Shown piece by piece: positions 2,335 to 58,176 of a stretch of DNA of 64,000 nucleotides (the first letter of the stretch is position 1; every line of letters begins with the position of its first letter). The position numbers and the translations under genes were made by a program. This DNA is from Prevotella sp. (GTDB lineage Bacteria > Bacteroidota > Bacteroidia > Bacteroidales > Bacteroidaceae), in the NCBI GenBank assembly GCA_017557405.1, contig JAFYYV010000001.1:142079-206078 (forward strand). The letters are read 5' to 3'. Under the pieces are notes generated by a model. That model saw only the letters and a program-made list of their open reading frames with translations. It was not told the origin of the DNA and did no database searches.

Positions 2335-4197
2335 TTGAAAAAGTTTTTTTCTATCATGCTTTTAGCTTTTACGGCAATGACCGTTCAAGCACAAGAAAAC
2401 GAAGCCCTAGAAGGTGATATAGATGAAGTAGTGGTAACAGGTACACGCAATGCTGTTGACGTGCGCCATCTTCCTATGACAGTAAATGTCATTGATCGCA
2501 AGACTCTGACCGAGCAACATCAGACAAGTATCCTGCCCACAGCGATGCAAATGGTGCCGGGACTCTTTGTCACCTCTCGCTCGATGATGGGTTATGGTGT
2601 ATCAACAGGTGCAGCTGGTGGCATCAACCTACGTGGTATTACGGGCGGTGCAGGACAATTGCTTGTACTGATTGATGGACATCCGCAATATCAAGGCATC
2701 TATGGTCACCCCATCGCTGACAGCTACCAGACGCTAATGGCCGATCGTGTAGAGGTGCTACGTGGCCCAGCCTCGGTGCTCTACGGTTCAAATGCTATGG
2801 GCGGTGTGCTGAACATCGTTACCCGTTCGATGCACGAAGACGGTGTAAAGACCAGCATCAACCTTGGTGCAGGCAGCTACGGAACCGTTCAAACAGAAGC
2901 CTCGAATCAAGTGCGAAGCGGAAAGTTCAGCAGCACTGTCGCAGCACAATATGAGCGCACCGACAACCACCGCCCACGCATGGGTTTCGAGCAATATGGT
3001 GGCTATATGAAACTTGGCTACGACCTGACAGATAATTGGAACACCTATGTCGATGCTGACATCACCCGTTTCAATGCCTCTTACCCAGGAGCCGAGACAT
3101 CGCCATTGTACGATGCCGACCAATGGATTACGCGTGGTATGGTCTCTGCGGCTCTTGAGAACCACTACAACAACACCAATGGTGCACTGAGTGTTTATTC
3201 GAACTTCGGACGCCACAAGATTGATGATGGTACAGCCGACCCATCGAAACCTACACAGCGCTTCTTCCGCTCGAAAGACGCTCTGACAGGCGTGTCATTG
3301 TATCAAAGCGCACGACTCTTCGAGGGCAACCGACTGACTGTCGGCTTCGACTACCAACACATCTATGGTAACGCCTACTACACCTCGAAGGAAACGGGCG
3401 AAGTGCTCGAAACGCCGAACAAGCAGAGTGGCAGAAGCCATCGCAACGAGGTGGCTGGTTACATCGATGTTCGTCAGGACCTCTTGTCGTGGATGACCAT
3501 TGATGCTGGACTTCGCTTCGACCACCACAGCATTACAGGTTCTGAATGGATTCCGCAGGCGGGTATTGTTGTGCGGCCCATCTCATCGGGCGAAATCAAA
3601 TTGATGGCCAGCAAGGGATTCCGCAATCCCACGATGCGCGAGATGTATCTCTATCCCCCATCGAACGAGGAATTGGAACCTGAGCGTCTTTGGAACTATG
3701 AGTTATCATGGCGTCATCGTCTAGGGCAGTTCTCCTACGGCATGAACCTCTTCTACATCAAAGGCGACAACATGATTCAGACCGTGAATCGCAAGAACGT
3801 CAATACGGGCGAGATTGAGAACTATGGTGCTGAGTTCGAGGCACAATACAGCATCAACCCCCGTTGGTCGCTCTTCACGAATCATTCTCTGCTCCATATG
3901 GAGAATCCTGTCATTGCAGCCCCCGAATACAAGGGTATGCTGGGCGTGAACTATCGTCAAGACCGTTGGAACGTGATAGCAGGTCTGCAATATATCAACG
4001 GACTTTACACCGCCATTGGTGAAAACGAGAAGAAAGAAGACTTCTGCCTGCTCAACGCCACCGTCAACTATCAACTGACAAACAGCATCACGCTGTGGGT
4101 TCGTGGCGAGAACCTTCTTGCTCAGAAATACGAAATCAATCTCGGCTATCCCATGCCACGTGCTACGTTTATGGGTGGTGTGAATGTGAATTTCTAA
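2335..4197 (+). CDS. TonB-dependent outer-membrane receptor (small CirA/BtuB-sized type, no SusD partner)
   Basis: The TTG start gives signal peptide MKKFFSIMLLAFTAMTVQAQ. Plug motifs DEVVVTGTR and LRGPASVLYGSNAMGGVLNIVT. Terminal aromatic residue (VNVNF) is typical of OM beta-barrels. Confidence 0.85.
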   Translation: MKKFFSIMLLAFTAMTVQAQENEALEGDIDEVVVTGTRNAVDVRHLPMTVNVIDRKTLTEQHQTSILPTAMQMVPGLFVTSRSMMGYGVSTGAAGGINLRGITGGAGQLLVLIDGHPQYQGIYGHPIADSYQTLMADRVEVLRGPASVLYGSNAMGGVLNIVTRSMHEDGVKTSINLGAGSYGTVQTEASNQVRSGKFSSTVAAQYERTDNHRPRMGFEQYGGYMKLGYDLTDNWNTYVDADITRFNASYPGAETSPLYDADQWITRGMVSAALENHYNNTNGALSVYSNFGRHKIDDGTADPSKPTQRFFRSKDALTGVSLYQSARLFEGNRLTVGFDYQHIYGNAYYTSKETGEVLETPNKQSGRSHRNEVAGYIDVRQDLLSWMTIDAGLRFDHHSITGSEWIPQAGIVVRPISSGEIKLMASKGFRNPTMREMYLYPPSNEELEPERLWNYELSWRHRLGQFSYGMNLFYIKGDNMIQTVNRKNVNTGEIENYGAEFEAQYSINPRWSLFTNHSLLHMENPVIAAPEYKGMLGVNYRQDRWNVIAGLQYINGLYTAIGENEKKEDFCLLNATVNYQLTNSITLWVRGENLLAQKYEINLGYPMPRATFMGGVNVNF

Positions 4198-4203
4198 ACT
4201 AAA

Positions 4204-4497
4204 GTGTAATCGCTACACGCGAACGAACGAACAGTTGAACAGTTTTTGTGTGTGAAACTGCAATAGAAGATTATTATTATATAATATATAATAATAAAAG
4301 TTTCGCGCACGCAAAAAAGAAAACTGTTCAACTGTTCGTTCGCTGTTCGTTCTCATATCCATCTTCTTTGTGGAAAAAAAGAAGCGTTGTCAAAGACCAT
4401 CTTTGACCTTGTCATTTGTGGTCTTTGATCTCCTCATTGCATAGCTTTGACCGTGTCATTGATGGTCTTTGACAACGTCATTTGTGGCCTTTGACAA
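4204..4497 (+). repeat. Composite intergenic element, copy 1: long imperfect hairpin (4220-4342) plus five tandem 22-bp units (4389-4495)
   Basis: Arm CGAACGAACGAACAGTTGAACAGTTT (4220-4245) is complementary to AAACTGTTCAACTGTTCGTTCG (4321-4342). The apex is a 12-bp A/T palindrome with a 3-nt loop (4271-4297). A near-identical copy lies at 18364-18655. Confidence 0.85.
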
Positions 4498-4532
4498 TTT
4501 TAATGTTTAGGAACAAATAGTATATACAAAAA

Positions 4533-4568
4533 AAGAGGATTTGACATTCACTATCAAATCCTTTCTTT
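4533..4568 (+). terminator. Intrinsic terminator-like hairpin downstream of the composite element
   Basis: AGGATTTGA (4536-4544), 9-nt loop, TCAAATCCT (4554-4562), followed by TTCTTT and preceded by an A-run. Confidence 0.55.
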
Positions 4569-4922
4569 GACCGATTTCCAACAGACTACGATTTATCACA
4601 AATCCTTCAATTGTCAATCGGGTCATCTAGTTCAGTTCTATAATCTCTAACTAATTAAATTACTTTATGAATTTAGCTATCAGCAATTGTTTATGGAACT
4701 AACCATTAAATATATTAAAGTTTTTGTTTTGGTTGCATTGTGTTTGCAAAGATACAGAAAGAGACGGAAAACACCGCGTTGTTTTGTATTCGATGACGGC
4801 CGTTTTGTATCCACAATACAATCGGGAGCAAAAAGGATACATTTGGTAGGGCAAAACGTTAAAAATCACTATTGATGGGCGAAAAAGGATGCTGACAAAG
4901 GAGGGTACCCGACTATTTTTGT

Positions 4923-4953: not shown

Positions 4954-7900
4954 ATGACAACGCGTCGCTCGCTGACACACTGGGCAATCCATGCCTTTAG
5001 CATGGTCCTTAGTTGCACTCTTTTGTCGCTGCTGCCAATATGGGTGGCACGGGCTGGTATGCCCTTGGGAACTAGCCATTTCCGCACGCTGAACGTGAAA
5101 AATGGGTTGGCCGACAATTTTGTGCGTCATATATCGACCGACAGCTATGGATTCGTGTGGTTTGCTACCATCAACGGTGTCAGCCGCTTCGATGGCTACC
5201 GCTTCGTGAACTACCAACCCGTGGAGGTTGGCGCGCAAAACGACAATGTGGCATGGGTATGCGAGACTGCTGATCGAACGCTGTGGATGTCTTGCGGTGG
5301 TGAAGGTTTCACCTACGACCGACAACACAATACGTGGAGTAAGGACGGTCTTGAGCGGTTGTCGCAACTTGGCATCAAAGGCGCACCCAGTCTGCTCTAT
5401 GTAGACGATCATCACAACCTATGGGTAGCCACTGAAAGAGAACTATACCTATATGACTTCACGCAATCGCGCCTACATCGCATAGAGTATTTCAACCCTT
5501 CACCCATCGTCCACATCGTGTCGCGCAACGGAAAAACGTTGGTAGTAACAAAGAAATGCAGTGTCTATGAGGTGGCATTGGACAAACATCAGTTATTGCT
5601 GGTGGCACAACCGCCCGAACTGACGTTCACTCGCGATAGCCGGGTGTTCCTCGACAGCAAGATGACGCTGTGGGCCTACAATTCGCATGCACCGGCCTCT
5701 GCTGTATGGTGTCTGCCCCAAGGACAGCAGCTGTGGCGACAGGCGATGCCTGTAAAGCAGATGGGCAACCCGCTGGTGAACACCATTACTGAGGATAATG
5801 ATGGCCAGCTATGGGTGGGTACTGAGGATGACGGTATTCACGTGCTAACGCGATTGGCGGATGACGGCCTGACTCTGAATCCCGTGGCGCGGATGAATGC
5901 CTTCGAGTCACGCAATAGCCATATTACAAGCATCTTTCTTGACAACAACAATACGATATGGGTGGGGTCAGCGAAACTAGGTGTAGTTTTCTCCGACAGG
6001 AACATTCCACACTTCGTTTTCGTACCTACGGGTAATAGCGAAGACGTGACCTCGCTGCTCGAGGACAACGAAGGCAACCTGTGGATAGGATTCGATGGTG
6101 GTGGACTCATGAGGAAGACACCAACTGGCAACGTCACGATGTTCTCCGTACCGCCCTACTCCTCCACGTACGAGGGAACGACAGGCGGACTGGTGACAGC
6201 GCTCGCCCAACAAAAAGATGGTTCGGTGTTGGTGGGTACTTACGGGAGCGGTATTGCCCGATTCGATGGTCATCGCCTTGTACCAATGTGGCGAGACGTG
6301 ACCAGCATAAAATACGTCAAAGCCATCACCCCCGACTTGCATGGGAATCTATGGGTGGCAACAGTCGACCGAGGCGTGGTGAGAATTGATGCAGACGGGA
6401 ATACCGTCAATTTTACTACTGAGAACTCATCGCTCCTATCAGATGGTGTGCTGTGTTTGGCCTGCGACTCTCTTCACAACATTATATACATAGGAACATC
6501 GCAAGGTGTATCGGCCTATGACTGCAATCGTGACAATTTTGTCGACATCAAAGCCATCGACGGATTGAAAGGTATGTATATCTACTCGCTGATAGTGTGT
6601 CATCAAGGCAAGTTGTGGATTGGAAGCAGAGATGGCATTTGGATTTACAGCCCTTTGAATAACGGAGTCACACATCTAAGCACCGAGCAAGGCTTGTCGC
6701 ATCCTGTGGTGAGAGCACTAGCAAAGGCGGTTTATCCAGGTGGGGCATACGTTTGGGCAACCACCGACAATGGTCTGACCTGTATCTCCGTGAAAAAGAC
6801 TGACGACAACCAATGCGAATACAAATGCAATCCTTTCTTCGACACCGATGGCCTGCAAGGCATCATCTTCTCGAACAATGCTGCGCTGACGGCCAAAGAT
6901 GGTTCCGCTTTGTTGGGCTGTTTCACAGGTTATGTGAGCATTCAACCTGAAAACATGATGATTCACACGCCTAGACTCCAGGTGCGATTCACCGATTTCC
7001 GCATCAATGGACAAAGCAGCACGAATCACTCGCTCGCGAATCTCACTATCCGTCACAACGAGCGACCCACTATCTTCGTTTCAGCCATGCTGCCTGCGCT
7101 CGACCGGAAAATCAAATATCTTTATCGATTCAAAGGCGAGAAGGAATGGGAAAGAGCGCCTGACAATCACTTGTATTTTGCCTCATTGATGCCTGGTACC
7201 CACATCCTTCAGGTGAAGGCTGAACTGCCTGGGGTGGCAGAAAGCGAAATCGCAGAACTGACTATCAAGGTGCAGCCGCCCTTGTGGTTGTCGTGGCCTG
7301 CCTTGCTCTTCTATTTACTCCTGCTAGCCACGGCCGTAGGCCTCATCTTCCGCTCTGTACGACTCCGACAAAAACGCCAATTGGCCATCAGGCAACTGGA
7401 GATGAATCTGGAGAAATATGAGATGGAAGAGGAGAAAATTCGATTCTTTACTAATATCAGCCACGACCTTAAGACACCTCTCACACTAGTTGTCGCCCCA
7501 TTAGAAAAGATTCGTTCGTTCAGTCTGCCAGCTTCCATTCGCACCGAGGTGGAGGTGGCTTGGCGGAATGCTCGGCAACTCTACGACCTTGTGTTGCAAT
7601 TGCTCGACTTCCGCCGTCTTGATGAAGGAAGGGAAAAACTGAATCTCAAGCATGGCGATGTGTTGAACTTTGTAAGGCAGACGGTGCAGGGCTTTTCTTA
7701 TCTTGCCACACGCAAGCAAATCAAACTGATGCTGCAACTGCCCACCTCGTCCATCGAGGCTGCCTTCGATGAGAACAAACTGCGCCGCATCATCTCTAAT
7801 CTCCTTTCAAATGCCTTTAAATACAACACGGAAAATGGAGCTGTAACAGTATCATTAGCCATTCGACCACTCGACCACTCGACTTCTAATCACTTGCAAG

Positions 7901-9000
7901 ACAATGATTCAGAGCCTTCACCATTGTCCAACTCTTCTGAGTTGCTGCTTAGCATTGCCGACACAGGTATTGGCGTGAACGACAAGCGGCACATATTCGA
8001 TCGTTTTGTACAGGAAACGCATGGACAAGAGCAGGAGGGAAGTGGCCTTGGACTGCACATTGTCAAACAATATGTTGACATGATGGGCGGAAGCATTTCT
8101 GTCGCAGACAACAAGCCCCAGGGCACTATTTTCACCGTGAAACTGCCATTGTCGGAGACTATAAATGTCGATGATGAAGAACTGCCAACCACCAAAGCTG
8201 ATACCATCTATGAAGAGGTGAATGCCGTAGACGGCACATACGAAAAACCTATTATCCTTGTGGTCGACGATAACATCGATGCACGCCAGTTCCTCCAACG
8301 CAGTCTTGATGACGAATATCAAGTGTTGGTGGCCGAGAACGGACGCGAGGCTCTCCGCCTTTTGGCAAAGACTGATAGGGTAAGCATCATTGTCAGCGAC
8401 GTCATGATGCCCGTGATGGATGGTATTGAACTATTCCGCAGAATCAAGAATAACATTAATTATTCCCATATTCCCGTCATCTTGCTTACCGCAAAAAGTG
8501 GCGAAGAAAACATTGTTGCTGGACTAGAAGAAGGTGTCGCGGACTATATCACAAAACCTTTCAGTCTTGCCGTACTCAAACTCCGTATCCGCAAGATAAT
8601 GGAATGGTCTCAAAATGTACATAAGAGCATCGCAACAGGAATAGAAATCAAACCTAGTGAAATCACGGTCAGCTCTCTTGACGAGGAACTTATTAGCAAT
8701 GTCATCGCACGAATCGAGGCCAACATCTCTAACGCTGATTATTCTGTAGCCCAACTCAGTAGCGATGTGGGAATGACACGCGGACATCTCTATAAAAAAC
8801 TGATGGCCATCACGGGCAAGCCTCCGTTGGAAATGATGCGCATCATTAAGCTCAAGCGAGGAAAAAGTCTGCTCCAACAAGGTCGCTCTAACATTTCAGA
8901 GGTTGCCGACAAGGTGGGGCTTTCACCCAAGCAGTTCGCTCACTATTTCAAGCTCGTTTATGGTGAAACACCATCTGACTATTTGAAAAAACAAAAATAG
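4954..9000 (+). CDS. Hybrid two-component system sensor kinase/response regulator with AraC-type HTH (HTCS)
   Basis: Long periplasmic beta-propeller/Y_Y_Y-type region, then a TM segment. HisKA motif FFTNISHDLKTPLT, HATPase GSGLGLHIVKQY, receiver ILVVDDN...DVMMPVMDG, and a C-terminal AraC HTH. Confidence 0.9.
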   Translation: MTTRRSLTHWAIHAFSMVLSCTLLSLLPIWVARAGMPLGTSHFRTLNVKNGLADNFVRHISTDSYGFVWFATINGVSRFDGYRFVNYQPVEVGAQNDNVAWVCETADRTLWMSCGGEGFTYDRQHNTWSKDGLERLSQLGIKGAPSLLYVDDHHNLWVATERELYLYDFTQSRLHRIEYFNPSPIVHIVSRNGKTLVVTKKCSVYEVALDKHQLLLVAQPPELTFTRDSRVFLDSKMTLWAYNSHAPASAVWCLPQGQQLWRQAMPVKQMGNPLVNTITEDNDGQLWVGTEDDGIHVLTRLADDGLTLNPVARMNAFESRNSHITSIFLDNNNTIWVGSAKLGVVFSDRNIPHFVFVPTGNSEDVTSLLEDNEGNLWIGFDGGGLMRKTPTGNVTMFSVPPYSSTYEGTTGGLVTALAQQKDGSVLVGTYGSGIARFDGHRLVPMWRDVTSIKYVKAITPDLHGNLWVATVDRGVVRIDADGNTVNFTTENSSLLSDGVLCLACDSLHNIIYIGTSQGVSAYDCNRDNFVDIKAIDGLKGMYIYSLIVCHQGKLWIGSRDGIWIYSPLNNGVTHLSTEQGLSHPVVRALAKAVYPGGAYVWATTDNGLTCISVKKTDDNQCEYKCNPFFDTDGLQGIIFSNNAALTAKDGSALLGCFTGYVSIQPENMMIHTPRLQVRFTDFRINGQSSTNHSLANLTIRHNERPTIFVSAMLPALDRKIKYLYRFKGEKEWERAPDNHLYFASLMPGTHILQVKAELPGVAESEIAELTIKVQPPLWLSWPALLFYLLLLATAVGLIFRSVRLRQKRQLAIRQLEMNLEKYEMEEEKIRFFTNISHDLKTPLTLVVAPLEKIRSFSLPASIRTEVEVAWRNARQLYDLVLQLLDFRRLDEGREKLNLKHGDVLNFVRQTVQGFSYLATRKQIKLMLQLPTSSIEAAFDENKLRRIISNLLSNAFKYNTENGAVTVSLAIRPLDHSTSNHLQDNDSEPSPLSNSSELLLSIADTGIGVNDKRHIFDRFVQETHGQEQEGSGLGLHIVKQYVDMMGGSISVADNKPQGTIFTVKLPLSETINVDDEELPTTKADTIYEEVNAVDGTYEKPIILVVDDNIDARQFLQRSLDDEYQVLVAENGREALRLLAKTDRVSIIVSDVMMPVMDGIELFRRIKNNINYSHIPVILLTAKSGEENIVAGLEEGVADYITKPFSLAVLKLRIRKIMEWSQNVHKSIATGIEIKPSEITVSSLDEELISNVIARIEANISNADYSVAQLSSDVGMTRGHLYKKLMAITGKPPLEMMRIIKLKRGKSLLQQGRSNISEVADKVGLSPKQFAHYFKLVYGETPSDYLKKQK

Positions 9001-9024: not shown

Positions 9025-10914
9025 ATGGTCTACAAGTCTTTAAGAATAATCTTATTAATGGCTATCGTCGCCATTACCACTCTGCCTGTCCAAGCGGGGC
9101 ACTATCAAAATTTCAAAGTGTCTACTTACATTCGAGCACAAGATGTGGCACGAATGGAGGACGAGCAATTTTTGAAATCCACATGGGAGACGGTGAGCAG
9201 CCAGGTCGATCTCGACAAAATCTACATCGAGACCCATCGCGATGCCTTCACTGTGCCCGAAAAGACGCTCACGAAAGTAAAGAAGTTCTTCCTCTCAAAA
9301 GGACTAGAGGTGGGCGGTGGCATTACCTATACTCGCTCGGAACCCACCGACTTCGAGACCTACAGCTACGCTCGCGAAAACGAACGGCAACAGGTCAAAC
9401 AAGTGGCGGAATTCACTGCCAAACATTTCGACGATTTCATCCTCGATGATTTCTTCTTCATCGACCTGAAGAATGATGATGAGATTGCCGCCAAAGAACG
9501 TAGTGGCAAGAGTTGGACGGAATATCGCCTACGGCTGATGGCCGATGCTGGTCGTGAACTGGTGGTGAACCCCGCCAAGGCTGTCAATCCCAAGGTGAAG
9601 GTCATCATCAAATATCCCAACTGGTATGATCACTTCCATGGACTTGGTTTCAACCTTGAAGAAGAACCTATCTACTTCGATGGTCTTTGGACAGGCACGG
9701 AAACCCGCGACCCCGCCTCAGCGCAGCACCTGCAGAACTATCTAAGTTATAATGTCGTGCGCTATTTCGACAATATCGCCCCAGGAAAAAATGGTGGCGG
9801 ATGGGTAGATGCTGGCGGCATCAACATGAGCATGGACCGTTACGCCGAGCAATTGCACCTGACCATACTGTCGAAGACACCTGAAATAATCCTTTGGAAC
9901 TATATGCAGTTGGCCGAAGTGACGATTACTCCAGGCATGCGTGGCCGCTGGCAGTCGGCTGGTGGCAATAGTTTCCGCTACGATGAGATGGTAAAACCAT
10001 TCACTAAAAACGGGAAGACCATCACACCGACAACGATGGCTCGCTTTGCCCACGTAACACTGCACGAAACCGACAAACTGATAGGAAAATTGGGCAACCC
10101 CATCGGCCTCGTCTCCTACAAACCCTATCACTCTTCTGGCGAAGACTTTTTGCAGAACTACCTCGGCATGATTGGTCTTCCAATGGACATGTATCCGCAA
10201 TGGCAGGACGGTCGCCAGCAGATTCTGCTCACCGAGCAGGCCGCCAAAGATCCTCAGATTGTGGAGAAAATCAAAGGACAGCTTCGCAAAGGCGGTGATG
10301 TCATCATCACCACTGGTCTCCTCAAGGCCATTCGTGAGCCTCTTGCCGACATTTGTGAACTATATTGTGGCGATCTGAAGGCCATTATCAATGACTTCGG
10401 TTGGTACGGTAAGTCACCACGTGAGTTCATCATCCCGCAGGTCAAGTACTTTACCAACGACGCTTGGGAGGTGGTCAGTGCGGGTCGTCCGCTCACTGGT
10501 GGTGTTTCAGGATATCCTATCCTGCTGCGCGACACCTATTCAAAGGGTACGCTCTACGTGCTCACCATTCCCGACGACTTTGGTAACCTCTACGACTATC
10601 CTGCCAACGCGCTAAACGTCATTCGACGCACTATGAGCAAGGACGTAGGCGCATACATCGAGGGACCATCGAAGGTGGCATTGTTCCCCTATGACAACAA
10701 GACACTTGTGGTTGAGAACTTCAACGACAATCCTGTCACGTTGCGTGTGGTAATCAATGCCAAGGTCAATAGTCTACGCTACTTGCTCACCAACAAGGAA
10801 CTAAAACCGGCCGAGGTCACAATCAACAACCACCGTTATGCCCCCTATAAAGAAGGTCAGACTGTGTTCGACGTGAACCTTGCAGCCCATAGTTACATCG
10901 GACTAGGTTATTAA
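9025..10914 (+). CDS. Secreted protein of unknown function (possible glycoside-hydrolase-like three-domain protein)
   Basis: Signal peptide ending VQA|GH. No motif I can assign to a named family. Sits between the HTCS and GH3 genes on the same strand. Confidence 0.4.
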   Translation: MVYKSLRIILLMAIVAITTLPVQAGHYQNFKVSTYIRAQDVARMEDEQFLKSTWETVSSQVDLDKIYIETHRDAFTVPEKTLTKVKKFFLSKGLEVGGGITYTRSEPTDFETYSYARENERQQVKQVAEFTAKHFDDFILDDFFFIDLKNDDEIAAKERSGKSWTEYRLRLMADAGRELVVNPAKAVNPKVKVIIKYPNWYDHFHGLGFNLEEEPIYFDGLWTGTETRDPASAQHLQNYLSYNVVRYFDNIAPGKNGGGWVDAGGINMSMDRYAEQLHLTILSKTPEIILWNYMQLAEVTITPGMRGRWQSAGGNSFRYDEMVKPFTKNGKTITPTTMARFAHVTLHETDKLIGKLGNPIGLVSYKPYHSSGEDFLQNYLGMIGLPMDMYPQWQDGRQQILLTEQAAKDPQIVEKIKGQLRKGGDVIITTGLLKAIREPLADICELYCGDLKAIINDFGWYGKSPREFIIPQVKYFTNDAWEVVSAGRPLTGGVSGYPILLRDTYSKGTLYVLTIPDDFGNLYDYPANALNVIRRTMSKDVGAYIEGPSKVALFPYDNKTLVVENFNDNPVTLRVVINAKVNSLRYLLTNKELKPAEVTINNHRYAPYKEGQTVFDVNLAAHSYIGLGY

Positions 10915-15451: not shown

Positions 15452-18328
15452 ATGCGATATTTCACACTTATATGTGCCTTCTGGCTTCTGTCCACTCTTG
15501 TCGTTCAAGCGCAAAATGATGAAGACAGAGGTCTGACCGTCAGCGGAACCGTACAGGATGCTGAATTGAAAGAAGCGATAGCGCAAGCTACTGTGCAACT
15601 GTTCCGTTCGAAGGATAGTACGTTCGTTGGCGGCTCCATAACCGATTTGCGCGGTAATTTCTCAGTCGAAGCACCTGCGAATGGCATCTACCGACTGAAG
15701 ATTTCATCGATAGGATTCCAACCGATAGAACGTGAGGTTACACTACGACGCAACCAAAGTCAGGATTTGGGTAACCTATTGATGTCGCCCGACGCCGTCA
15801 TGCTGAAGGAGACCGTTGTTACGGGACGAGCAGCACAAGTGATTGTAAGAAAAGACACGCTGGTTTATAATCCAGACGCCTTCCGCACGCCTGAGGGGTC
15901 GCCTATCGAAGAACTCATCAAACGAATGCCTGGTGCCGAGGTCGATGAGGATGGTAACATCACCGTCAACGGAAAGGTGGTGCAGAAGATCCTGCTCGAT
16001 GGAAAAGAGTTCATGCTAGGCGACGTAGAGACGGCATTGAAAAACCTACCCGTTTCCATCATTCAGAATGTGAAATTCTACGACCAGCAAAGCGATCAAG
16101 CCCGTATCACCGGCATTGAGGACGGTAACAAGGAAACTGTGCTCGACTTCACGATTAAAAAGGGTATGAACCGCGGTTATATGACCAACCTCGATCTCGC
16201 TGGAGGCACCAAACATCGCTATGCTTCGCGCGGTATGGGTAGCAGCTTTACGGACAAGACGCGCTTCGTGTTGATGGGCAATCTGAACAATAAGGAAGAG
16301 AATGCAGGATGGTGGAACCGACGCGGATTGAACGCACGGAAGATGTTGGGTACTAACCTGAACTATGATGATGGCAAAAAACTGAAGATTGATGCCTCTG
16401 TGCGTTGGAATCATCGTGACGGCGACAACGAAAACGAGAACGCCAGTGAGAACTTCTATAGCCAAGATTATCGCACCTTCTCGAATAGTCGATCGAAGAG
16501 TCTCTCGCGTAGTAACAACTGGAACGGAAACATGCGCGTAGAATGGAAGCCCGATACGCTGACGAACATCTTGCTGCGCGCCAACGGCAGCCTTGGCACC
16601 AACGATGGTATTTCAACATCTGCTAGCGCCACGTTCTCGGAGGATCCGTATCTCTATACCGAAGACCCGTTAGGATCGTTAACCTCATTGTCTCCCTATC
16701 TCGTCAACCACAACCAAAGCGCCAGCCTCTCCTACGGCGAGAACAAGAACGCTTGGGCCATGTTGCAGTTGTATCGTCGCTTGAACCCAAGAGGCCGTAA
16801 CATCACTTTGCGTGTAGAAGGTAGCATGGGCGACAGCAAGAACCGCAACACCTCTAACAACGAGGTTCATTTGTTCCGTGTGAAAAACATTGCAGGCGAG
16901 GATTCCACCTATTTTACTGCCCGCTACAACACTACACCATCGGACAATCAGGGTTACGTGCTCAGCGCCAATTATAGCGAACCGCTTTGGAATGGTGCAC
17001 ATTTGCAAGCCAACTACGAGTTGCGATACAATCAGAACAAGAGTGACCGCCAGACTTACGACTTCAGTCTTCTGCCTCAGAATCCTTTTGCAGGCATTGC
17101 TCCCGAATACCGCGAATGGACCCCTTGGATTGACGACCTCTCACCTCTCGATGGCTATCTCGACAGGAATCTCAGTCGCTATTCCGAGTATAAGAACTAC
17201 ACGCACAATATCCGACTCACCTTGCGACATTATCAGGAGAAATACGACTACAACATTGGTTTCCTCGTACAGCCCCAGCACTCGAACTTCATCCAGGACT
17301 ATCGAGGCATCTATGTCGACACCATACGCAATGTCACCAACCTGACTCCCACGTTCGACTTCCATTATAAGTTCACCGACCAGCACGACATCTGGCTGCA
17401 CTATCGTGGCGACACTCGCCAGCCTGATATCACCCAGTTGCTCGACATCACCGACGATTCGAACCCGCTTTACATCACGCAAGGTAATCCGGGCTTGAAA
17501 CCGCAGTTTACCAACTCGCTGAACGTCTATTACAAGAACTACATCTCGAAATACAAGCGTTCTATCGTACTCTACGGAAACTATCGCCACATCCGCAACA
17601 GCATCTCGAATCTCGTACGCTACAACGCCGAAACGGGTGGAAGCTTGTCGCGACCGGAGAACATCAATGGTAACTGGAATGCCGACGGTGGTTTCACGTT
17701 TAACACCGCCCTCGATTCTGCAGCCCATTGGAACATCGGTACTGACACTCGTTTGCGCTACAACAACTACGTGAGTTATGTGGCTCAACGTGCTGCTGAT
17801 GCACAGAAGAACACCACGCGCACCACCAACCTGAACCAGCGGCTGAACCTCAGTTTCCGCAACGATTGGTTGGAAGTGACCATCGATGGTAACGTGAACT
17901 ACCAACACTCTCGCAACGAGTTGCAACCCACTGCCGACCTCGACACTTGGCATTTCAGCTATGGCGGACAAATCATGCTTCGTCTGCCTTACAACTTCGA
18001 GATTTCAACGAATTTGCACGAAAACAGCCGACGAGGATATAACGACCCGTCGTCGAACACGAACGAGCTTATTTGGAATGGGCAAGTATCGAAGACTTTC
18101 CTCAAAAGCAAGACGCTCGTCGTAGCACTCAACTTCTACGACCTCCTCAACCAACAGAGCAACTATGAGCGATGGGTTAATGCTACTGGTCGCAGCGATA
18201 CTCGCTATAACAGCATCAATAGCTACGCCATGCTCCACGTACGCTACCGCCTGAACATGTTCGGTGGAAAGGTCGACACTGAAGGCCGCTACGAAAAGAA
18301 ATGGGGTAACAACGATAGACGTCGTTGA
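15452..18328 (+). CDS. Outer-membrane beta-barrel family protein with N-terminal CarboxypepD_reg-like domain (TonB-dependent-receptor-like)
   Basis: Signal peptide ..VVQAQ. Carboxypeptidase-regulatory-like domain (GTVQDAELKEAIAQATVQLF), plug-like segment, then a long Asn/Tyr-rich beta-strand region. Confidence 0.8.
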   Translation: MRYFTLICAFWLLSTLVVQAQNDEDRGLTVSGTVQDAELKEAIAQATVQLFRSKDSTFVGGSITDLRGNFSVEAPANGIYRLKISSIGFQPIEREVTLRRNQSQDLGNLLMSPDAVMLKETVVTGRAAQVIVRKDTLVYNPDAFRTPEGSPIEELIKRMPGAEVDEDGNITVNGKVVQKILLDGKEFMLGDVETALKNLPVSIIQNVKFYDQQSDQARITGIEDGNKETVLDFTIKKGMNRGYMTNLDLAGGTKHRYASRGMGSSFTDKTRFVLMGNLNNKEENAGWWNRRGLNARKMLGTNLNYDDGKKLKIDASVRWNHRDGDNENENASENFYSQDYRTFSNSRSKSLSRSNNWNGNMRVEWKPDTLTNILLRANGSLGTNDGISTSASATFSEDPYLYTEDPLGSLTSLSPYLVNHNQSASLSYGENKNAWAMLQLYRRLNPRGRNITLRVEGSMGDSKNRNTSNNEVHLFRVKNIAGEDSTYFTARYNTTPSDNQGYVLSANYSEPLWNGAHLQANYELRYNQNKSDRQTYDFSLLPQNPFAGIAPEYREWTPWIDDLSPLDGYLDRNLSRYSEYKNYTHNIRLTLRHYQEKYDYNIGFLVQPQHSNFIQDYRGIYVDTIRNVTNLTPTFDFHYKFTDQHDIWLHYRGDTRQPDITQLLDITDDSNPLYITQGNPGLKPQFTNSLNVYYKNYISKYKRSIVLYGNYRHIRNSISNLVRYNAETGGSLSRPENINGNWNADGGFTFNTALDSAAHWNIGTDTRLRYNNYVSYVAQRAADAQKNTTRTTNLNQRLNLSFRNDWLEVTIDGNVNYQHSRNELQPTADLDTWHFSYGGQIMLRLPYNFEISTNLHENSRRGYNDPSSNTNELIWNGQVSKTFLKSKTLVVALNFYDLLNQQSNYERWVNATGRSDTRYNSINSYAMLHVRYRLNMFGGKVDTEGRYEKKWGNNDRRR

Positions 18329-18363
18329 TAAAAATGAATGAGAAAGTGTTCTCGTTTTATTTG

Positions 18364-18655
18364 GTGTAATATTTACACGCGAACGAACAGTTGAACAGTT
18401 TGTGTGTGTGAAACTGCAATGGAAGGTTATTATTATATTAAATATAATAATAAAAGTCTTGCGCACGTGAAAAAGAAAACTGTTCAACTGTTCGTTTGTT
18501 CGCTGTTCGTTCACATACCCCTATTCTTTTTGAAACAAGTGGCGTTGTCATTGATAATCTTTGACCTTGTCATTTGTGGCTTTTGACCTCGTCATTGCAT
18601 AGCTTTGACCGTGTCATTGATGGCCTTTGACAACGCCATTTGTGGTCTTTGACAA
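18364..18655 (+). repeat. Composite intergenic element, copy 2: long hairpin (18380-18496) plus five tandem 22-bp units (18547-18653)
   Basis: Collinear with 4204-4497, with scattered substitutions and small indels. Same arm, apex and unit order. The apex arms are conserved while the 3-nt loop differs (TAA vs AAT). Confidence 0.85.
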
Positions 18656-18706
18656 GGCTAAACTGTTTTACTTTGGCTACGTCCAAGATACCCTCGCTCA
18701 ACAATA

Positions 18707-18732
18707 AAAACAAAAAATCGGTTTTTTGTTTT
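18707..18732 (+). terminator. Weak A/T-rich hairpin, terminator-like
   Basis: AAAACAAAAAA, loop TCGG, TTTTTTGTTTT; lies about 50 nt after the repeat array. Confidence 0.35.
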
Positions 18733-18752
18733 GTATTGTTCTCGCTTATTCG

Positions 18753-18760
18753 TATCTTTG
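18753..18760 (+). promoter_or_regulatory. -7 promoter box TAtcTTTG for mnmG
   Basis: TAnnTTTG match 28 nt upstream of the ATG at 18789. Confidence 0.55.
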
Positions 18761-18788
18761 CGTCGTTAAAGAAGATTCTTTCTGAACA

Positions 18789-20696
18789 ATGACATTCAAT
18801 TACGATGTGATTATAATCGGCGGCGGCCATGCTGGATGCGAGGCTGCAGCGGCATCTGCACGCATGGGAGCGAAGACATGTCTCATCACAATGGACATGA
18901 ACAAAATTGCCCAAATGTCGTGCAATCCTGCTGTTGGAGGCATCGCCAAAGGACAGATGGTGCGCGAAATCGATGCATTGGGCGGCGAAATGGGTCGCGT
19001 GACCGATGCTACTGCTATACAATTCCGTATGCTCAACCGAGGGAAAGGTCCTGCTGTGTGGAGCCCAAGAGCACAATGCGACCGCGGAAAATTCATCTGG
19101 AAATGGCGCGAGACCCTCGATGGAATCGATAATTTGTTTATTTGGCAAGATCAAGCCGATGAACTATTGGTTGAACAAGGCGAGGTGGTCGGAGTGCGCA
19201 CCATTTGGGGAGCTGAGTTTCACGCCAAAAGTGTGGTTGTGACGGCTGGCACTTTCCTCAACGGACTCCTTCATGTAGGTCGTAAAATGGTGCCAGGAGG
19301 ACGTTGTGCAGAACCCGCGGTGCCCCATTTCACCGAGAGTATCACACGACATGGTGTCCGCTCGGCTCGAATGAAAACAGGTACGCCTGTACGTATCGAC
19401 CGCAGAAGCGTTCATTTCGAGGACATGGAGATACAACCTGGCGAAGCCGACTTCCATCAATTCAGCTACTATGCACCTCATCGACAGCTGCAACAATTGC
19501 CTTGCTGGACTTGCAATACCAATGCCGAGGTTCACGAAACGCTACGTTCGGGATTGGCCGATTCGCCCTTGTATAATGGACAAATACAGAGCATCGGACC
19601 TCGTTATTGCCCTTCTATCGAGACAAAACTGGTCACTTTCCCCGACCGAGAGCAACATCCGCTATTCTTGGAACCAGAGGGCGAAAACACGAACGAGATG
19701 TACCTGAATGGTTTCTCGTCGAGTATGCCGATGGATGTGCAACTAATGGCGTTGAGAAAGATTCCTGCACTTCGCGATGTACAAATCTATCGTCCTGGCT
19801 ATGCTATTGAATACGATTTCTTCGATCCCACCCAACTCGACCATTCATTGCAATCGAAAGTGGTGCGCGGCTTGTTCATGGCTGGTCAGGTAAACGGTAC
19901 AACAGGATATGAAGAGGCTGCTGGACAAGGTTTGGTGGCAGGTGTGAATGCCGCTCTCTATAGTCAATCCATCTCTTCTGCAATAAATGACGATTCCATC
20001 GCCACGCCATCTTCGTTCACTTTGGCTCGCGATGAAGCCTATATTGGCGTATTGATTGACGACCTAGTGACAAAAGGTGTCGATGAACCCTACAGAATGT
20101 TTACGTCTCGAGCCGAATATCGCATACTGCTACGACAGGATGATGCTGATGCCCGACTTACCGAACGAGCCTATGAACTCGGATTGGTAAGTCGCGAACG
20201 ATATGATTGGTGGATGGAGAAGAAGGAAATGGTCGATAGAATCATTCATTTCTGCGAAAACACTCCCGTTAAACCAAGCGCCATCAATGGTGCTTTGGAG
20301 GCTCTTGGTACCACTCCCCTGCGGTTTGGTTGCAAGGTCGCTGACTTGATTGCCCGTCCACAACTGACCATGCAGAACTTAGCTGACATGCTCCCAAAGC
20401 TGAAAGAATTACTGAATTCACCGAAAAACCGCAAGGAAGAGATAGCAGAAGCAGCCGAAATAAAGATAAAATACAAAGGCTATATCGAACGCGAAAAAAT
20501 GGTTGCAGAGAAAATGCACCGGTTGGAGAACATCAAAATAAAAGGACGTTTCAACTATTCGGAGTTGCATGAAATCTCAACCGAAGGAAGACAGAAACTG
20601 GAAAGAATCCAACCAGAAACCTTAGCTCAAGCAAGTCGGATTCCAGGTGTTTCTCCTTCCGACATCAACGTGCTGCTCGTCTTGCTTGGTCGCTGA
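18789..20696 (+). CDS. mnmG: tRNA uridine 5-carboxymethylaminomethyl modification enzyme MnmG (GidA)
   Basis: FAD motif DVIIIGGGHAGCEAA; CNPAVGGIAKGQMVREIDALGG; full-length collinear GidA architecture. Confidence 0.97.
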   Translation: MTFNYDVIIIGGGHAGCEAAAASARMGAKTCLITMDMNKIAQMSCNPAVGGIAKGQMVREIDALGGEMGRVTDATAIQFRMLNRGKGPAVWSPRAQCDRGKFIWKWRETLDGIDNLFIWQDQADELLVEQGEVVGVRTIWGAEFHAKSVVVTAGTFLNGLLHVGRKMVPGGRCAEPAVPHFTESITRHGVRSARMKTGTPVRIDRRSVHFEDMEIQPGEADFHQFSYYAPHRQLQQLPCWTCNTNAEVHETLRSGLADSPLYNGQIQSIGPRYCPSIETKLVTFPDREQHPLFLEPEGENTNEMYLNGFSSSMPMDVQLMALRKIPALRDVQIYRPGYAIEYDFFDPTQLDHSLQSKVVRGLFMAGQVNGTTGYEEAAGQGLVAGVNAALYSQSISSAINDDSIATPSSFTLARDEAYIGVLIDDLVTKGVDEPYRMFTSRAEYRILLRQDDADARLTERAYELGLVSRERYDWWMEKKEMVDRIIHFCENTPVKPSAINGALEALGTTPLRFGCKVADLIARPQLTMQNLADMLPKLKELLNSPKNRKEEIAEAAEIKIKYKGYIEREKMVAEKMHRLENIKIKGRFNYSELHEISTEGRQKLERIQPETLAQASRIPGVSPSDINVLLVLLGR

Positions 20697-23255: not shown

Positions 23256-23310
23256 GCTCTTGCAATTGTAGAAGCCCCTTCTGAAATCATCAAACGATAT
23301 ATTTGGTAAA

Positions 23311-23373
23311 GTAAAATAGTCTATTTTAGTCAGTAAAATAGTCTATTTTGCTCGGTAAAATAATCTATTTTAC
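23311..23373 (+). repeat. Three tandem 22-bp units of a second palindromic repeat (GTAAAATAGTCTATTTTAC type)
   Basis: Units start at 23311, 23333 and 23355. Each has 7-bp arms GTAAAAT/ATTTTAC around a 5-bp core. Confidence 0.8.
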
Positions 23374-23485
23374 TTTTTCAAAGGATATATCTGACAACAT
23401 CAAAGAGATGCTATAGAAAAGAAAGAAGGATGTTCTGATATCAGTAAAAATAGCATTTTTATTTTGTTAATCCATTTTTTTACTC

Positions 23486-29694: not shown

Positions 29695-29702
29695 TCAGTT
29701 TT

Positions 29703-29831
29703 GTCAAAGGCCATCAATGACGTTGTCAAAGACCACAAATGAGGCGGTCAAAGCTATGCTTTAAGCGTGTCAAAGCTATGCTATGAGAAGGTCAAAAGCC
29801 ACAAATGACAGGCTTAAAGACCATCAATGAC
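29703..29831 (-). repeat. Array of six 22-bp mosaic repeat units (reverse orientation)
   Basis: GTCAAAGGCCATCAATGAC, GTCAAAGACCACAAATGAG, GTCAAAGCTATGCTTTAAG, GTCAAAGCTATGCTATGAG, GTCAAAAGCCACAAATGAC, CTTAAAGACCATCAATGAC at 22-bp spacing, starting 9 nt after the polA stop. Confidence 0.85.
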
Positions 29832-29913
29832 AAATGTTATGGATTCATAGGGCGGCAAAAGCGGCATTCTGCACAAAAGAATTAGAAAATTTGGCAAATC
29901 GCCTGCTTCTTTG

Positions 29914-32849: not shown

Positions 32850-32964
32850 AACACCACTTCATTAATAGTTTGTTTAAAGGGCTTTCTGATGATTTAAGAG
32901 GTATAGAGTTGCCATCTGGCAATTCCACTGATACAAAGTGAAAATGATATATGCTAGCTTTGGA

Positions 32965-32989
32965 AAAGTAAAATAGACTATTTTACTTT
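32965..32989. terminator. Perfect 12-bp-arm palindrome AAAGTAAAATAG-A-CTATTTTACTTT between convergent VanW-like and mutS genes (single unit of the second repeat family)
   Basis: Read directly from the sequence; same core as the 23311-23373 units. Confidence 0.6.
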
Positions 32990-33056
32990 CTTATAGTTAT
33001 GGTATATGGGTTTCAAAGCAAAGGAGTAGCAGGACTACTTTTAATCTAAATCAAGA

Positions 33057-43004: not shown

Positions 43005-43238
43005 GAATGACAAATGACAAAATGACAAATGACAATAAGGTACCTTACAACATTCCATATATGTAGTAGTGTATATATATTGTATAAATATGTATATATA
43101 GTAATAATATAATTATATAATATTATTATAATATATATAATATATGTTAATATATACTACCCCCCAGCATGCTCCCTAGGCGTTTTCGGCGTTTGCAACC
43201 TATGAACCTTGCTTATTGTCATTTGTCATTTGTCATTC
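43005..43238. repeat. Inverted repeats of ATGACAA heptad runs (43005-43040 / 43207-43238) flanking an ~165-bp segment dominated by A/T palindromes
   Basis: GAATGACAAATGACAAAATGACAAATGACAATAAGG versus CCTTGCTTATTGTCATTTGTCATTTGTCATTC. The core contains TAATAATAT...ATATTATTA. Confidence 0.8.
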
Positions 43239-43251
43239 TGTCATCGGAAGT

Positions 43252-43314
43252 GTCATAGCTATGCAATGACAAGGTCAAAGCTATGCAATGAGCCGCTTAA
43301 AGGCCACAAATGGC
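43252..43314 (-). repeat. Three 22-bp mosaic repeat units (reverse orientation)
   Basis: GTCATAGCTATGCAATGAC, GTCAAAGCTATGCAATGAG, CTTAAAGGCCACAAATGGC at 22-bp spacing. Confidence 0.75.
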
Positions 43315-43713
43315 GTGATGAAAGAGCATCTCTGACAAATCATGTGAAAAAACATCAGAAAAAGTGTGTTCGCGAAGGGTAAAAAAACAATATTTTGGAA
43401 GCAAAAAATCGCAATTCCCTGAACTTTTTTTCTCACGAACGCAAAAATCATGATGAAAATGCCAAACTTGAAAAATTGGAGTTGTGAACGAATGTTAATC
43501 ATTAAAGTTAACAAATGTAAATAATCAAAGACAGAAGAGTGAATAAAAATTGAGATAAAACCGAAACAAAATGGTTGCAATTCGTGCAGAGTGGGATGCA
43601 ATTGGAAGAAAATGCGGTATTTTTCGCTGAATTTCGCTTGATTTGAACTAAAAACTCACACGCGAGAATGCAAATTTATTTGTATTCTCTTCGTTTATCA
43701 CATTTTTTTGCAC

Positions 43714-50214: not shown

Positions 50215-51632
50215 TTTATGGCATTATCATTGTCATACTGCTCACTCCTTTGTTTCTCGTAGGTGCTATCTCTATCCTTCCTACCTTCGATGATTGGACT
50301 TCATTGGTCTCTCCATCATTCGAACCTTTCTTTTCAAAAGAACGTTTTCTTTTCTTTGGTTATCATTGGCGACCATTTGATTCCATATTCGGTTATATTG
50401 TAGGACTCAATCCGCAAACGCTTTTCCCACTTCTCAATCACATTTGTGTGGTCTTAGGTCATGTTTGTAGCACTATACTATTGTTCATTCTTGCACGGAA
50501 GCTTCAACTAAGTAAACTTGCCTGCAACCTCGCAACACTCTTTTTCTTTCTTTCTCCGGGAATGTTGGCAACTGTACTGGCAGTTGACGGACTCAACCAA
50601 ACTTACGCCAACGTATGGGCATTAATCGCCACCTTATCCTATCTTTCAATGTCGGGTTGGAAGAAATATGTGGTTTGGCTCTTCTTCATTTTCATCGCCA
50701 CCCTTTGCAAGGAAAACGCATTGATGTGGGCATTAATCGCACCGATTATCGCATACGTTTTTGATTTTACAAACCGCACAACATTTCGCAAAGACTTGCT
50801 GATAGGAATAGGGTTAATCATCGCTTATTTCCTCGCAATTCTCTTGTTTCCCAGCAACATCGATATTCATCCTGAATACGTACCAAGCATTGGAAAGACA
50901 TTCAAGGATTTCTTCAAATTCCTGCTTTCCACTTGGTTTGCCGTTGATTTTGTCAGTTTGCTCCATCAACCCAGCAGAAATCTCATCATCGCAATAGCAA
51001 CCCTCTTGTTGTCTTTGCCGCTTGTCTATTTCATCTTCATCAAGAACTTCAAATCGTTCAGCGACAAACGTCTGATAGGTCTTGTTATCTGCTTACTGAT
51101 AGCTGTTGCCCCACATATTTTCACGGTTTTCAGCATGATGCACACCTATGCAGGATTGGCAATTGCAGCGTTGATAATCGGAGTCGTTATCACCAAACTC
51201 AATCACTCAAAAACTCAAAAACTAATATACCTTCCTTTCATCGCTTATTTCATTTCAGCTGTCTTTGTTGATGTTCATCTTTGGCATGAATCCTACAAAT
51301 CGGGATTGGTTGGTAAGCAGATGGCGCAACAAGCCATTGAGAAAACCTTGCAAGCAACGGCTGCTCCCAATTCAGTTGAAATCATCATTATAGAGGATGA
51401 TTATCCACGTCTTTCATCGTTTTGTGTAATTCCATCCGATGCATTTGGATGGGGTAGGGCGGTGCAACATGAAACCAACTATCAATGGCCTACTCAACTG
51501 AATGATACGACTATCGAACGCAATAATCAATCGAAAGAAACAGCATTGAAATTGGCGCAACAAACCATCAACGAGAAGAAAGCCGATTGTGTTTGGATTG
51601 TTGACAAAAAGGAAATTGAGGTTGTCAAATAA
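50190..51632 (+). CDS. Polytopic membrane protein, GT-C-like (ArnT/GtrC-type) glycosyltransferase candidate
   Basis: About 10 or more hydrophobic helices followed by a ~110-aa soluble tail. No diagnostic motif recognised. Overlaps the upstream gene by 25 nt. Confidence 0.4.
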   Translation: MQNSRCQLIYGIIIVILLTPLFLVGAISILPTFDDWTSLVSPSFEPFFSKERFLFFGYHWRPFDSIFGYIVGLNPQTLFPLLNHICVVLGHVCSTILLFILARKLQLSKLACNLATLFFFLSPGMLATVLAVDGLNQTYANVWALIATLSYLSMSGWKKYVVWLFFIFIATLCKENALMWALIAPIIAYVFDFTNRTTFRKDLLIGIGLIIAYFLAILLFPSNIDIHPEYVPSIGKTFKDFFKFLLSTWFAVDFVSLLHQPSRNLIIAIATLLLSLPLVYFIFIKNFKSFSDKRLIGLVICLLIAVAPHIFTVFSMMHTYAGLAIAALIIGVVITKLNHSKTQKLIYLPFIAYFISAVFVDVHLWHESYKSGLVGKQMAQQAIEKTLQATAAPNSVEIIIIEDDYPRLSSFCVIPSDAFGWGRAVQHETNYQWPTQLNDTTIERNNQSKETALKLAQQTINEKKADCVWIVDKKEIEVVK

Positions 51633-51662
51633 GATTTTTTTATAAAGCATTACTTTAGTTTT

Positions 51663-51747
51663 GTCAAAGACCACAAATGACCGTGTTAAAACATAGCTTT
51701 GACCTCGTCATTCCATAGCTTTGACGAGGTCAAAGACCATCAATGAC
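51663..51747. repeat. Four 22-bp mosaic repeat units in mixed orientation forming a 13-bp-stem hairpin
   Basis: Reverse, forward, forward, reverse units. CTTTGACCTCGTC (51697-51709) pairs with GACGAGGTCAAAG (51723-51735). Lies between convergent genes. Confidence 0.8.
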
Positions 51748-51757
51748 AAAACCTATA

Positions 51758-58166: not shown

Positions 58167-58176
58167 AAGAGGTTTT

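Follow-up and report, generated by a model that had tools for sequence, protein, structure and literature searches.

Modular palindromes and 22-bp unit arrays form a mosaic of intergenic repeats in an uncultured rumen Prevotella

Introduction

Downstream of a TonB-dependent receptor gene in Prevotella sp. (NCBI GenBank assembly GCA_017557405.1, contig JAFYYV010000001.1, positions 142,079 to 206,078 of the forward strand; this 64,000-nucleotide stretch is called the window below, and its first letter is position 1) lies a composite element of ~290 bp, in which a long AT-cored hairpin is followed by an array of 22-bp units. A second copy follows another outer membrane (OM) receptor gene in the same window. 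What is this element: a dedicated RNA structure in the 3' untranslated region (3'UTR) of OM receptor mRNAs, a mosaic of extragenic repeats or a non-autonomous mobile element? An initial annotation, made from the letters alone, had left these three roles side by side. Among them, the mosaic element resembling the repetitive extragenic palindromes (REP) and bacterial interspersed mosaic elements (BIME) of Enterobacteria proved the best fitting: the composite is probably a mosaic of three modules, namely a mini-hairpin (S), the AT-cored palindrome (H) and the 22-bp unit array (U), drawn from lineage-specific non-coding intergenic repeats similar in kind to REP/BIME, to BOX and to BrickBuilt of Porphyromonas gingivalis, and a probable 3' barrier or terminator. 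The repeat system belongs to uncultured rumen Prevotella, within which H and U make up two families independent of each other, each spreading on its own.

Results

Architecture of the composite element

The two copies, at 4204-4497 (c1) and 18364-18655 (c2), are each ~292 bp long and carry their parts in the identical order S-H-linker-U. Reading of the sequence confirmed the ~290-bp composite in two copies, together with the coordinates, stems, apex and units that had been proposed for it. The description of the second copy as near-identical was right as to the order of parts but too strong as to sequence: c1 and c2 shared 86% identity across 298 columns (blastn), with 92% in H, 82% in the linker and 89% in U.

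Homology between the copies begins at 4204, and their alignment stops at 4497. The left border of c1 is formed by module S (4204-4218, + strand), a mini-hairpin GTGTA-ATCGC-TACAC recognised by folding and by the start of c1/c2 homology; the GTGTA...TACAC hairpin recurs, with different loops, in c2, in a conspecific strain (L027) and at a locus of another genome (L014). Module H (4220-4346, + strand) is a 127-bp AT-cored palindrome delimited by RNA and DNA folds, by 11 homologues and by a consensus structure. In c1 its outer stem pairs 4220-4245 with 4321-4342 and its inner stem 4248-4259 with 4299-4310, around the apex TTATTATTATAT-AAT-ATATAATAATAA (4271-4297). The outer arms are tandem repeats of CGAA and GAACAGTT that make up ~25-bp perfect inverted repeats, and the interior of H is asymmetric. 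As a family, H spans 125-140 bp. The linker between H and U (4347-4385, + strand), which starts with CTGTTCGTTC and continues as an A-rich tract, is the most divergent portion between the copies; even c2 and its counterpart in L027 differ here by 8 mismatches and 12 gap columns. Module U of c1 (4386-4497, + strand), identified by its motif matches and by a period of 22 in Tandem Repeats Finder, consists of a palindromic junction unit and four direct 22-bp units. The array of five 22-bp units described earlier at 4389-4495 stands, with the qualification that the first of these units, GTCAAAGACCATCTTTGAC, is the palindromic junction unit. The termini of array c1 are TTGTCA...TGACAA and the array closes as a hairpin with a 16-bp stem (z = -6.2), whereas the termini of the whole S-H-U composite are not convincingly inverted (GTGTAAT vs TTGTCAA, 4/7).

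As had been proposed, c1 is non-coding, strongly structured and located between the receptor stop codon (4197) and a terminator-like hairpin. The receptor gene itself (2335-4197, + strand, from the open reading frame (ORF) list; Pfam PF07715 (Plug) and PF00593 (beta-barrel)) lies upstream of c1 and outside the repeat. As RNA, the segment 4198-4575 folded at -133.4 kcal/mol on the + strand (z = -11.3 vs shuffles) and at -125 kcal/mol on the - strand (z = -9.5 vs shuffles), and H as single-stranded DNA also gave strong folds (z = -11.9 and -8.0); hairpin or cruciform potential is very strong on both strands. Downstream of c1, the feature at 4533-4568 (hairpin 4536-4562, no strand assigned), which is outside the repeat and has no counterpart at c2, had been taken for a conventional terminator: there is indeed a hairpin, preceded by an A-run and followed by a T-run, but a terminator scan called it on the - strand only, its + strand tail being TTCTTTGA. 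In that scan the junction unit (4389-4407) was the sole part of c1 to qualify as an intrinsic terminator under loose criteria, and no intrinsic terminator was called around c2.

The second copy lies on the + strand behind an OMP_b-brl_3 receptor gene (15452-18328, + strand; CarboxypepD_reg and OMP_b-brl_3 barrel by Pfam). Its modules S and H (18364-18502) begin 35 nt past the receptor stop codon, and its U array (18545-18655) consists of five direct 22-bp units whose subtypes follow the same order as in c1. In the conspecific strain L027, in which the receptor is 97% identical, c2 is found at the matching site with S and H kept; the element is 91% identical, as compared with 98.6% for the downstream flank, and c1 agrees equally often with the c2 copy of either strain. 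Two Logan contigs that carry this second receptor gene (L002 and L003) end within H, and the H palindrome appears to break short-read assemblies.

That the element matches no described RNA family was borne out by Rfam, which gave no match at gathering thresholds over the whole window. At E<=1, the segment 4150-4650 matched only generic long-hairpin miRNA-precursor models, at 12-32 bits vs thresholds of 37-200.

The 22-bp unit forms six arrays in the window

With up to two mismatches, the motif GTCATT-N6-CTTTGAC had 28 matches in the window vs 2.85 expected, a number reached by none of 100 shuffles (0/100). Nearly all of these matches fall within six U arrays, which together hold 25 units at six sites, so that beyond c1 and c2 there are four arrays (c3-c6) that were missing from the initial annotation. 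Array c3 (29697-29835, - strand) has six units, mostly in - orientation and without H, and starts ~3 nt past the polA stop codon, upstream of ychF. Array c4 (43252-43340, - strand) has 3-4 units in - orientation and lies in the divergent 5' region of leuS. Arrays c5 (51654-51760) and c6 (58164-58301), to which no strand was assigned, are made of units of mixed orientation; c5 occupies all of the space separating two convergent stop codons (51632 and 51758), and c6 all of that separating the convergent SpoU-methylase and DUF4252 genes. The neighbours of c3-c6 (polA, ychF, leuS, a family 2 glycosyltransferase (GT2), SpoU methylase and DUF4252) include no receptor gene.

Slicing all arrays in register gave the unit consensus NNN-GTCATT-NNNNNN-CTTTGAC, in which (G)TCATT and CTTTGAC carry most of the information, and the 6-nt core and the 3-nt linker carry little. 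The cores fall into three subtypes (TGTGGY, GATGGY and SCATAG). What is conserved, when units are read across their borders, is a palindrome, TTTGAC-N3-GTCATT, that recurs every 22 bp. Single arrays hold units in both orientations, and most arrays open with TTTTGTCA and close with TGACAAAA. Arrays with such ends close as one long hairpin; z ranged from -1.8 to -6.9, with c5 at -6.9 (+) and -5.3 (-).

Array c4 adjoins a further hairpin (43006-43244, no strand assigned; ~240 nt, z = -6.3) in the divergent region upstream of leuS. It is long and AT-cored, but unlike H it has (AATGACA)x4 / (TGTCATT)x4 arms around a TA-rich core. The heptamers of these arms re-use the AATGAC motif found in the 22-bp units.

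Another repeat with a 22-bp period, unlike U, was found at 23302-23382, where three copies of the 19-bp palindrome GTAAAATAGTCTATTTTAC stand in tandem; one lone copy occurs at 32967-32985 (within 32959-33015). About 130 nt downstream of the tandem copies come a TATCTTTG promoter-like box and, near 23517, a gene start; the array looks like a repeated operator for some regulator. Three ORFs of the window had no Pfam match at E<=0.001: 40093-42774 (- strand, 893 aa), 50190-51632 (+ strand, 480 aa) and 9025-10914 (+ strand, 629 aa). The positional counterpart of the 629-aa ORF in relatives carries the precomputed annotation GH_cat/SSO3021_2nd/GH_C.

H and U occur mostly apart in other genomes

One genome per species of GTDB was scanned for H with the pattern GTTGAACAGTT-N60-90-AACTGTTCAAC, in which the spacing between the arms is limited to 60-90 nt. 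Among the 23 loci found, 11 were true H homologues (76-84% identity), and these came from seven rumen Prevotella(ceae) species represented by metagenome-assembled genomes (MAGs): RUG11493, RUG12005, RGIG2926, RGIG10252, RUG176, RUG10753 and RUG036. U arrays accompanied H in only two of the 11 homologue loci, both in RUG11493 (L004 and L014). The composite had first been described as one single element; its two larger modules are separate families that mostly occur apart.

The modules are also rearranged relative to one another. In both RUG11493 loci the interior of H is flipped relative to the U array, as compared with c1. At the RGIG10252 locus (L013, 2500-2690) three 22/23-bp units in tandem, unrelated in sequence (GGAGTTTGGTTCGTCCAAAGTG), come after H, which indicates that the build of an AT-cored palindrome plus a ~22-bp array recurs with interchangeable modules. 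Together with the different hairpin beside U at 43006-43340, these cases show module shuffling. The copy number of the arm repeats CGAA and GAACAGTT varies among H copies, and L008 carries an additional degenerate or solo H arm.

In the H consensus structure the outer stem is invariant, which is partly forced by the search pattern; the AT apex is retained and in three sequences both of its sides have changed yet remain paired. The inner stem GUGUGUG/CGCGCAC is missing from this structure.

H is independent of strand and of gene type. Between same-direction genes it is sense at c1, c2, L004 and L013 and antisense at L009 and L021; it lies between convergent genes at L005 and in divergent 5' regions at L008, L016 and L025; and at L014, L017 and L020 it lies at the edge of the locus. 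The genes beside the 11 homologues encode glycoside hydrolases (GHs), a short-chain dehydrogenase/reductase (SDR), an ABC transporter, a helicase, a methyltransferase and others (functions read off the translations, without Pfam).

The same scan returned nine loci of another kind (L006, L007, L011, L012, L015, L019, L023, L024 and L026): long hairpins with tandem-octamer arms, (GTTGAACA)n...(TGTTCAAC)n, in the unrelated phyla represented by Pyrinomonadaceae, Thermoanaerobaculia (three loci in one MAG), Melainabacteria/Vampirovibrio, Endomicrobiaceae and Geobacter. They far exceed the ~2 matches expected by chance (a hand estimate from pattern length and collection size). The search pattern favours tandem octamers, and GTTSAAC is itself a 7-bp palindrome; the inverted arrangement of the arms is nonetheless real. 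The occurrence of (GTTGAACA)n-arm hairpins in several other phyla hints that palindromes whose arms are tandem repeats form a broader class, as yet undescribed. Three matches to the H arms in the viral contigs of IMG/VR were dismissed as chance: none forms an H hairpin, two look coding-like by eye and one lies within a GTTGA-type octamer run.

A two-unit pattern scan of metagenomes found U arrays in 10 contigs, keeping GTCAYT...CTTTGAC while their cores are lineage-specific. Some are homogenised, such as the six direct GCATAG units of L045 and the five TGTGGC units of L040, and the purely direct arrays (L037, L040 and L045) are unable to form long hairpins. Seventeen arrays had known neighbours: 10 lie between same-direction genes, four between convergent and two between divergent genes, and one more consists of two mismatch-tolerant matches only. 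Placement right after a stop codon is frequent (9/17 arrays lie within 36 nt of one), and the orientation of U relative to the upstream gene is mixed. The U pattern yielded no array in IMG/VR viral contigs, and c1 had no blastn match in plasmid and phage collections.

The metagenome contigs also contain a GC-core variant of the unit (GTCACTACGGCCCTTTGAC / GTCATTTGGCCCCTTTGAC; L038 and L041-L044, from metagenome Ga0129313 and others), which always adjoins a conserved segment TTGACAAAATGATAGTGCC.TTTGG. This association suggests another composite element in a different organism.

Both composites sit at synteny breakpoints

Related species, with receptor proteins 86-92% identical, lack the element beside both receptor genes and have other genes 5-90 nt downstream of them. 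Orthologues of the TonB receptor that are 91-92% identical (L032-L034) are followed by an esterase gene 5 nt downstream and then by GH and GH3 genes; in the source genome, c1 and a gene for a 1348-aa hybrid two-component system (4954-9000) stand in place of the esterase gene. Behind the OMP receptor the next gene is radical-SAM, GH9 or sufC, and differs in every relative examined. Both composite copies are therefore placed at synteny breakpoints relative to these relatives. The ychF loci of relatives likewise have no arrays, and their neighbours are different.

Discussion

Probable origin and effect of a mosaic intergenic repeat

If the composite is a mosaic of dispersed repeats, one S-H-U block would have been copied once as a unit within the species, into two gene 3' flanks. 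The modules would be selfish or neutral DNA, with recombination or transposition in trans as the means of spread and replication slippage as that of growth; their palindromes may be kept symmetric by the copying process, and they would persist where insertion is tolerated, that is between a stop codon and the next signal. Lying upstream of the terminator or in its place, the repeats would be co-transcribed with the upstream gene. By analogy with REP/BIME, their most likely effect would be that of a stable stem-loop at the 3' end, obstructing 3'-5' exonucleases and causing transcription to pause or terminate; at c5 and c6, with no structure other than the array between the convergent genes, this effect would extend to both directions. 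This functional step is the weakest part of the reading.

Several observations weigh against this interpretation: i) mobility is something we infer, with neither an empty site nor a target-site duplication nor a cognate transposase found; in particular, the receptor and ychF loci of the relatives examined offered no clean empty site, and gene order differs there; ii) the ~86% identity between the copies is low for an active mobile element; iii) the direct-only arrays (L037, L040 and L045) cannot form long hairpins, so a hairpin-based role is not universal; iv) two of the arrays and three copies of H are situated in divergent 5' regions; and v) the conserved half-sites with a free spacer would suit recognition of DNA by a protein at least as well as an RNA structure.

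Possible transposition of a strict MITE

A different origin would be that of a strict MITE (miniature inverted-repeat transposable element), where H, the U arrays or both are cut and pasted by a transposase encoded elsewhere. We consider this possible but unlikely. The transposase would recognise the inverted termini CGAACGAACAGTTGAACAG...CTGTTCAACTGTTCGTTCG of H and TTTTGTCA...TGACAAAA of U, and the 22-bp units would offer the transposase multiple binding sites, in the manner of the ends of Mu and Tn7. Inverted termini are indeed present on H and on most arrays; the copies are dispersed, non-coding and partly incomplete; and both composites sit where gene order departs from that of relatives. 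A bulk catalogue also lists tens of thousands of MITEs in Bacteroidota, without individual description (PMC11602168). However, the target-site duplications envisaged by the initial annotation at the copy borders did not emerge from direct reading of the flanks of c1, c2, c3, c5, c6 and the H copies, which showed no 2-9 bp direct repeat common to both sides, and the relatives examined provided no precise empty site. No transposase gene was seen in the annotated parts of the window, nor was a cognate insertion sequence (IS) with matching ends seen in the sole genome scan, which allowed only 60-90 nt between the arms. The low identity between copies (86%) and the existence of direct-only arrays without inverted ends are further points against a strict MITE.

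Possible phased binding sites for a protein

The unit structure of U admits another explanation, which we regard as rather improbable: the arrays would be tandem 15-bp palindromic operators, WWTGAC-N3-GTCAWW, phased at 22 bp on one face of the helix, to which a dimeric DNA-binding protein binds and thereby marks gene 3' ends and convergent boundaries in a lineage of rumen Prevotella, with H and the hairpin at 43006-43244 as flippable, cruciform-prone partners. The candidate protein would be a nucleoid-associated, boundary, termination or recombination factor. Such sites would account for the concentration of information in (G)TCATT and CTTTGAC next to a free core and linker, for the conservation of the same half-sites across lineages with different cores, for a period of exactly 22 bp (two helical turns), for the irrelevance of orientation, for the direct-only arrays that have no capacity for a long hairpin and for the re-use of AATGACA in the heptamer arms of the 43006-43244 hairpin. 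On the other hand, no candidate protein is known; the arrays are lineage-restricted, being absent from 9/11 H loci and from all receptor and ychF orthologue loci, which is unexpected for a core chromosomal function; and concerted evolution of a selfish minisatellite can yield the same pattern of conservation.

A receptor-specific RNA, a promoter and other candidates

A dedicated sense-strand 3'UTR RNA, acting as a stabiliser or as a 3'UTR-derived small RNA (sRNA) for OM receptor mRNAs, had seemed attractive, as both composites follow OM barrel genes in sense orientation, ahead of a terminator-like or A/U hairpin. These are 2 cases only, and they are copies of one block. The expected preference for OM receptor genes vanished once other copies were considered: neither the remaining 11 copies of H nor any of the remaining U arrays has a receptor gene as neighbour. 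The hint that G-U wobble pairs mark a structure of the sense transcript also turned out to be weak. The + strand RNA of H does fold better than the - strand in 12/13 copies and contains more G-U pairs (3 vs 1 in the minimum free energy fold of H). This asymmetry tracks the conserved left-arm sequence TTTTGTGTGAGAAA and the orientations of H are mixed, so that we read it as inherited with the left arm, rather than as a sign of selection acting on a sense transcript. At least five loci have H in antisense or 5' position (antisense in L009 and L021, divergent 5' in L008, L016 and L025), and its interior is flipped in RUG11493; the inner stem that contained the wobbles is not conserved; U orientation relative to the upstream gene is mixed; and Rfam gave no match. 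The receptor-specific reading is largely refuted by this distribution, and we give it very little credence.

TAnnTTTG is the -7 box of Bacteroidetes, and in Bacteroides promoters it is spaced 19-21 nt from an upstream TTTG. U units of the type GCATAGCTTTGAC hold TAnnTTTG, and could make the array a promoter-carrying repeat, as reported for BrickBuilt, that drives transcription outwards. Ten of the 62 TAnnTTTG boxes of the window lie within arrays, which make up ~1% of the sequence, with the box contained in units SCATAGCTTTGAC, and BrickBuilt segments had bidirectional promoter activity (PMC4596501). Yet the closest TTTG motifs upstream of the box stand 13 or 22 nt away from it, which falls outside that spacing range; most arrays lie at gene 3' ends or between convergent genes, and a promoter in such a position would produce antisense RNA; and mnmG has its own TATCTTTG box outside the element. 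A promoter role is accordingly most improbable.

Three further candidates were rejected on grounds of architecture and copy number: an iteron-type replication origin (copies at multiple chromosomal sites among housekeeping genes, and no match to plasmids or phages), a CRISPR-like array (no spacers) and a Tn7/Mu-type transposon end (neither a paired opposite end nor a 5-bp duplication).

Implications

Prevotella dominates the rumen and many human guts, and its non-coding repeat content is almost undescribed. For annotation and comparison of its genomes the mosaic repeats matter in that spurious ORFs overlap c2, so the repeats may make gene callers over-extend ORFs, and in that they mark sites where gene order differs among close species; they could also serve as strain-typing markers. 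Should they function at 3' ends as barriers or terminators, or else serve as protein-binding arrays, the expression of neighbouring polysaccharide-utilisation and housekeeping genes would come under their influence.

Comparison with known systems

In architecture alone, direct 22-bp repeats adjoining an AT-rich, easily melted segment recall iteron origins such as the gamma origin of R6K, in which 22-bp iterons stand beside an AT-rich region. Here, unlike at an origin, at least three composites and six arrays are found among housekeeping genes in 64 kb of chromosome, and no rep gene is adjacent.

Closer likenesses are found among mosaic repeats. The BOX elements of Streptococcus pneumoniae have a 45-bp boxB, and the Neisseria intergenic mosaic elements (NIME) have 20-bp dRS3 repeats flanking RS units of 50-150 bp. 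Like the Prevotella repeats, both are modular and intergenic, with a middle module in tandem and variable in number and with stable folds, and are often beside surface-protein genes without being specific to them; they differ in having unrelated sequences, other unit sizes and no long AT-cored palindrome module. REP/BIME are extragenic mosaics of direct and inverted units that follow stop codons or lie between convergent genes and are co-transcribed; they stabilise the upstream mRNA, aid termination and bind IHF, gyrase and Pol I. The Prevotella U units agree with this picture in number and placement (25 units in six arrays per 64 kb, orientations mixed, 9/17 arrays <=36 nt from a stop codon). 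A REP unit, however, is an imperfect palindrome of 20-40 nt that bears a conserved GTAG-type head and is tied to RAYT transposases, whereas in the U unit the inverted repeat is limited to 4 bp (GTCA/TGAC) and a GTAG head is lacking, and the sequences are unrelated. Comparable mosaics are known in other phyla, hence nothing in the Prevotella system is fundamentally surprising.

The searchable literature yielded no described Prevotella repeat of the S/H/U type, and its sole close precedent, the closest described analogue of these modules, is BrickBuilt, an intergenic MITE-like element of P. gingivalis built from a spacer-less 23-nt minisatellite with an optional leader and tail (Klein et al. 2015; PMC4596501). 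It was reported only in P. gingivalis and P. gulae, with 19 elements per 2.3-Mb genome (PMC4596501). The IS5-type ends of BrickBuilt, GAGACCTTTGCA / TGCAAAGGTCTC, had no match with up to two mismatches on the + strand of 4100-4700 or 18300-18800; across the whole window each end pattern had 2-3 matches per strand, those on the - strand being counted without comparison to element coordinates. The likeness is one of organisation: both systems occur in Bacteroidales, are always intergenic, join spacer-less tandem units of ~22-23 nt to a leader or tail that is present, partial or absent, combine conserved and variable positions in imperfect units, are confined to one lineage and have predicted secondary structure. 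The sequences are unrelated, and the Prevotella unit has a period of 22 nt as against 23 nt in BrickBuilt. Moreover, the Prevotella arrays mix orientations and are locally much denser (six arrays in 64 kb), and their partner is a long AT-cored palindrome that is itself a dispersed repeat in several species.

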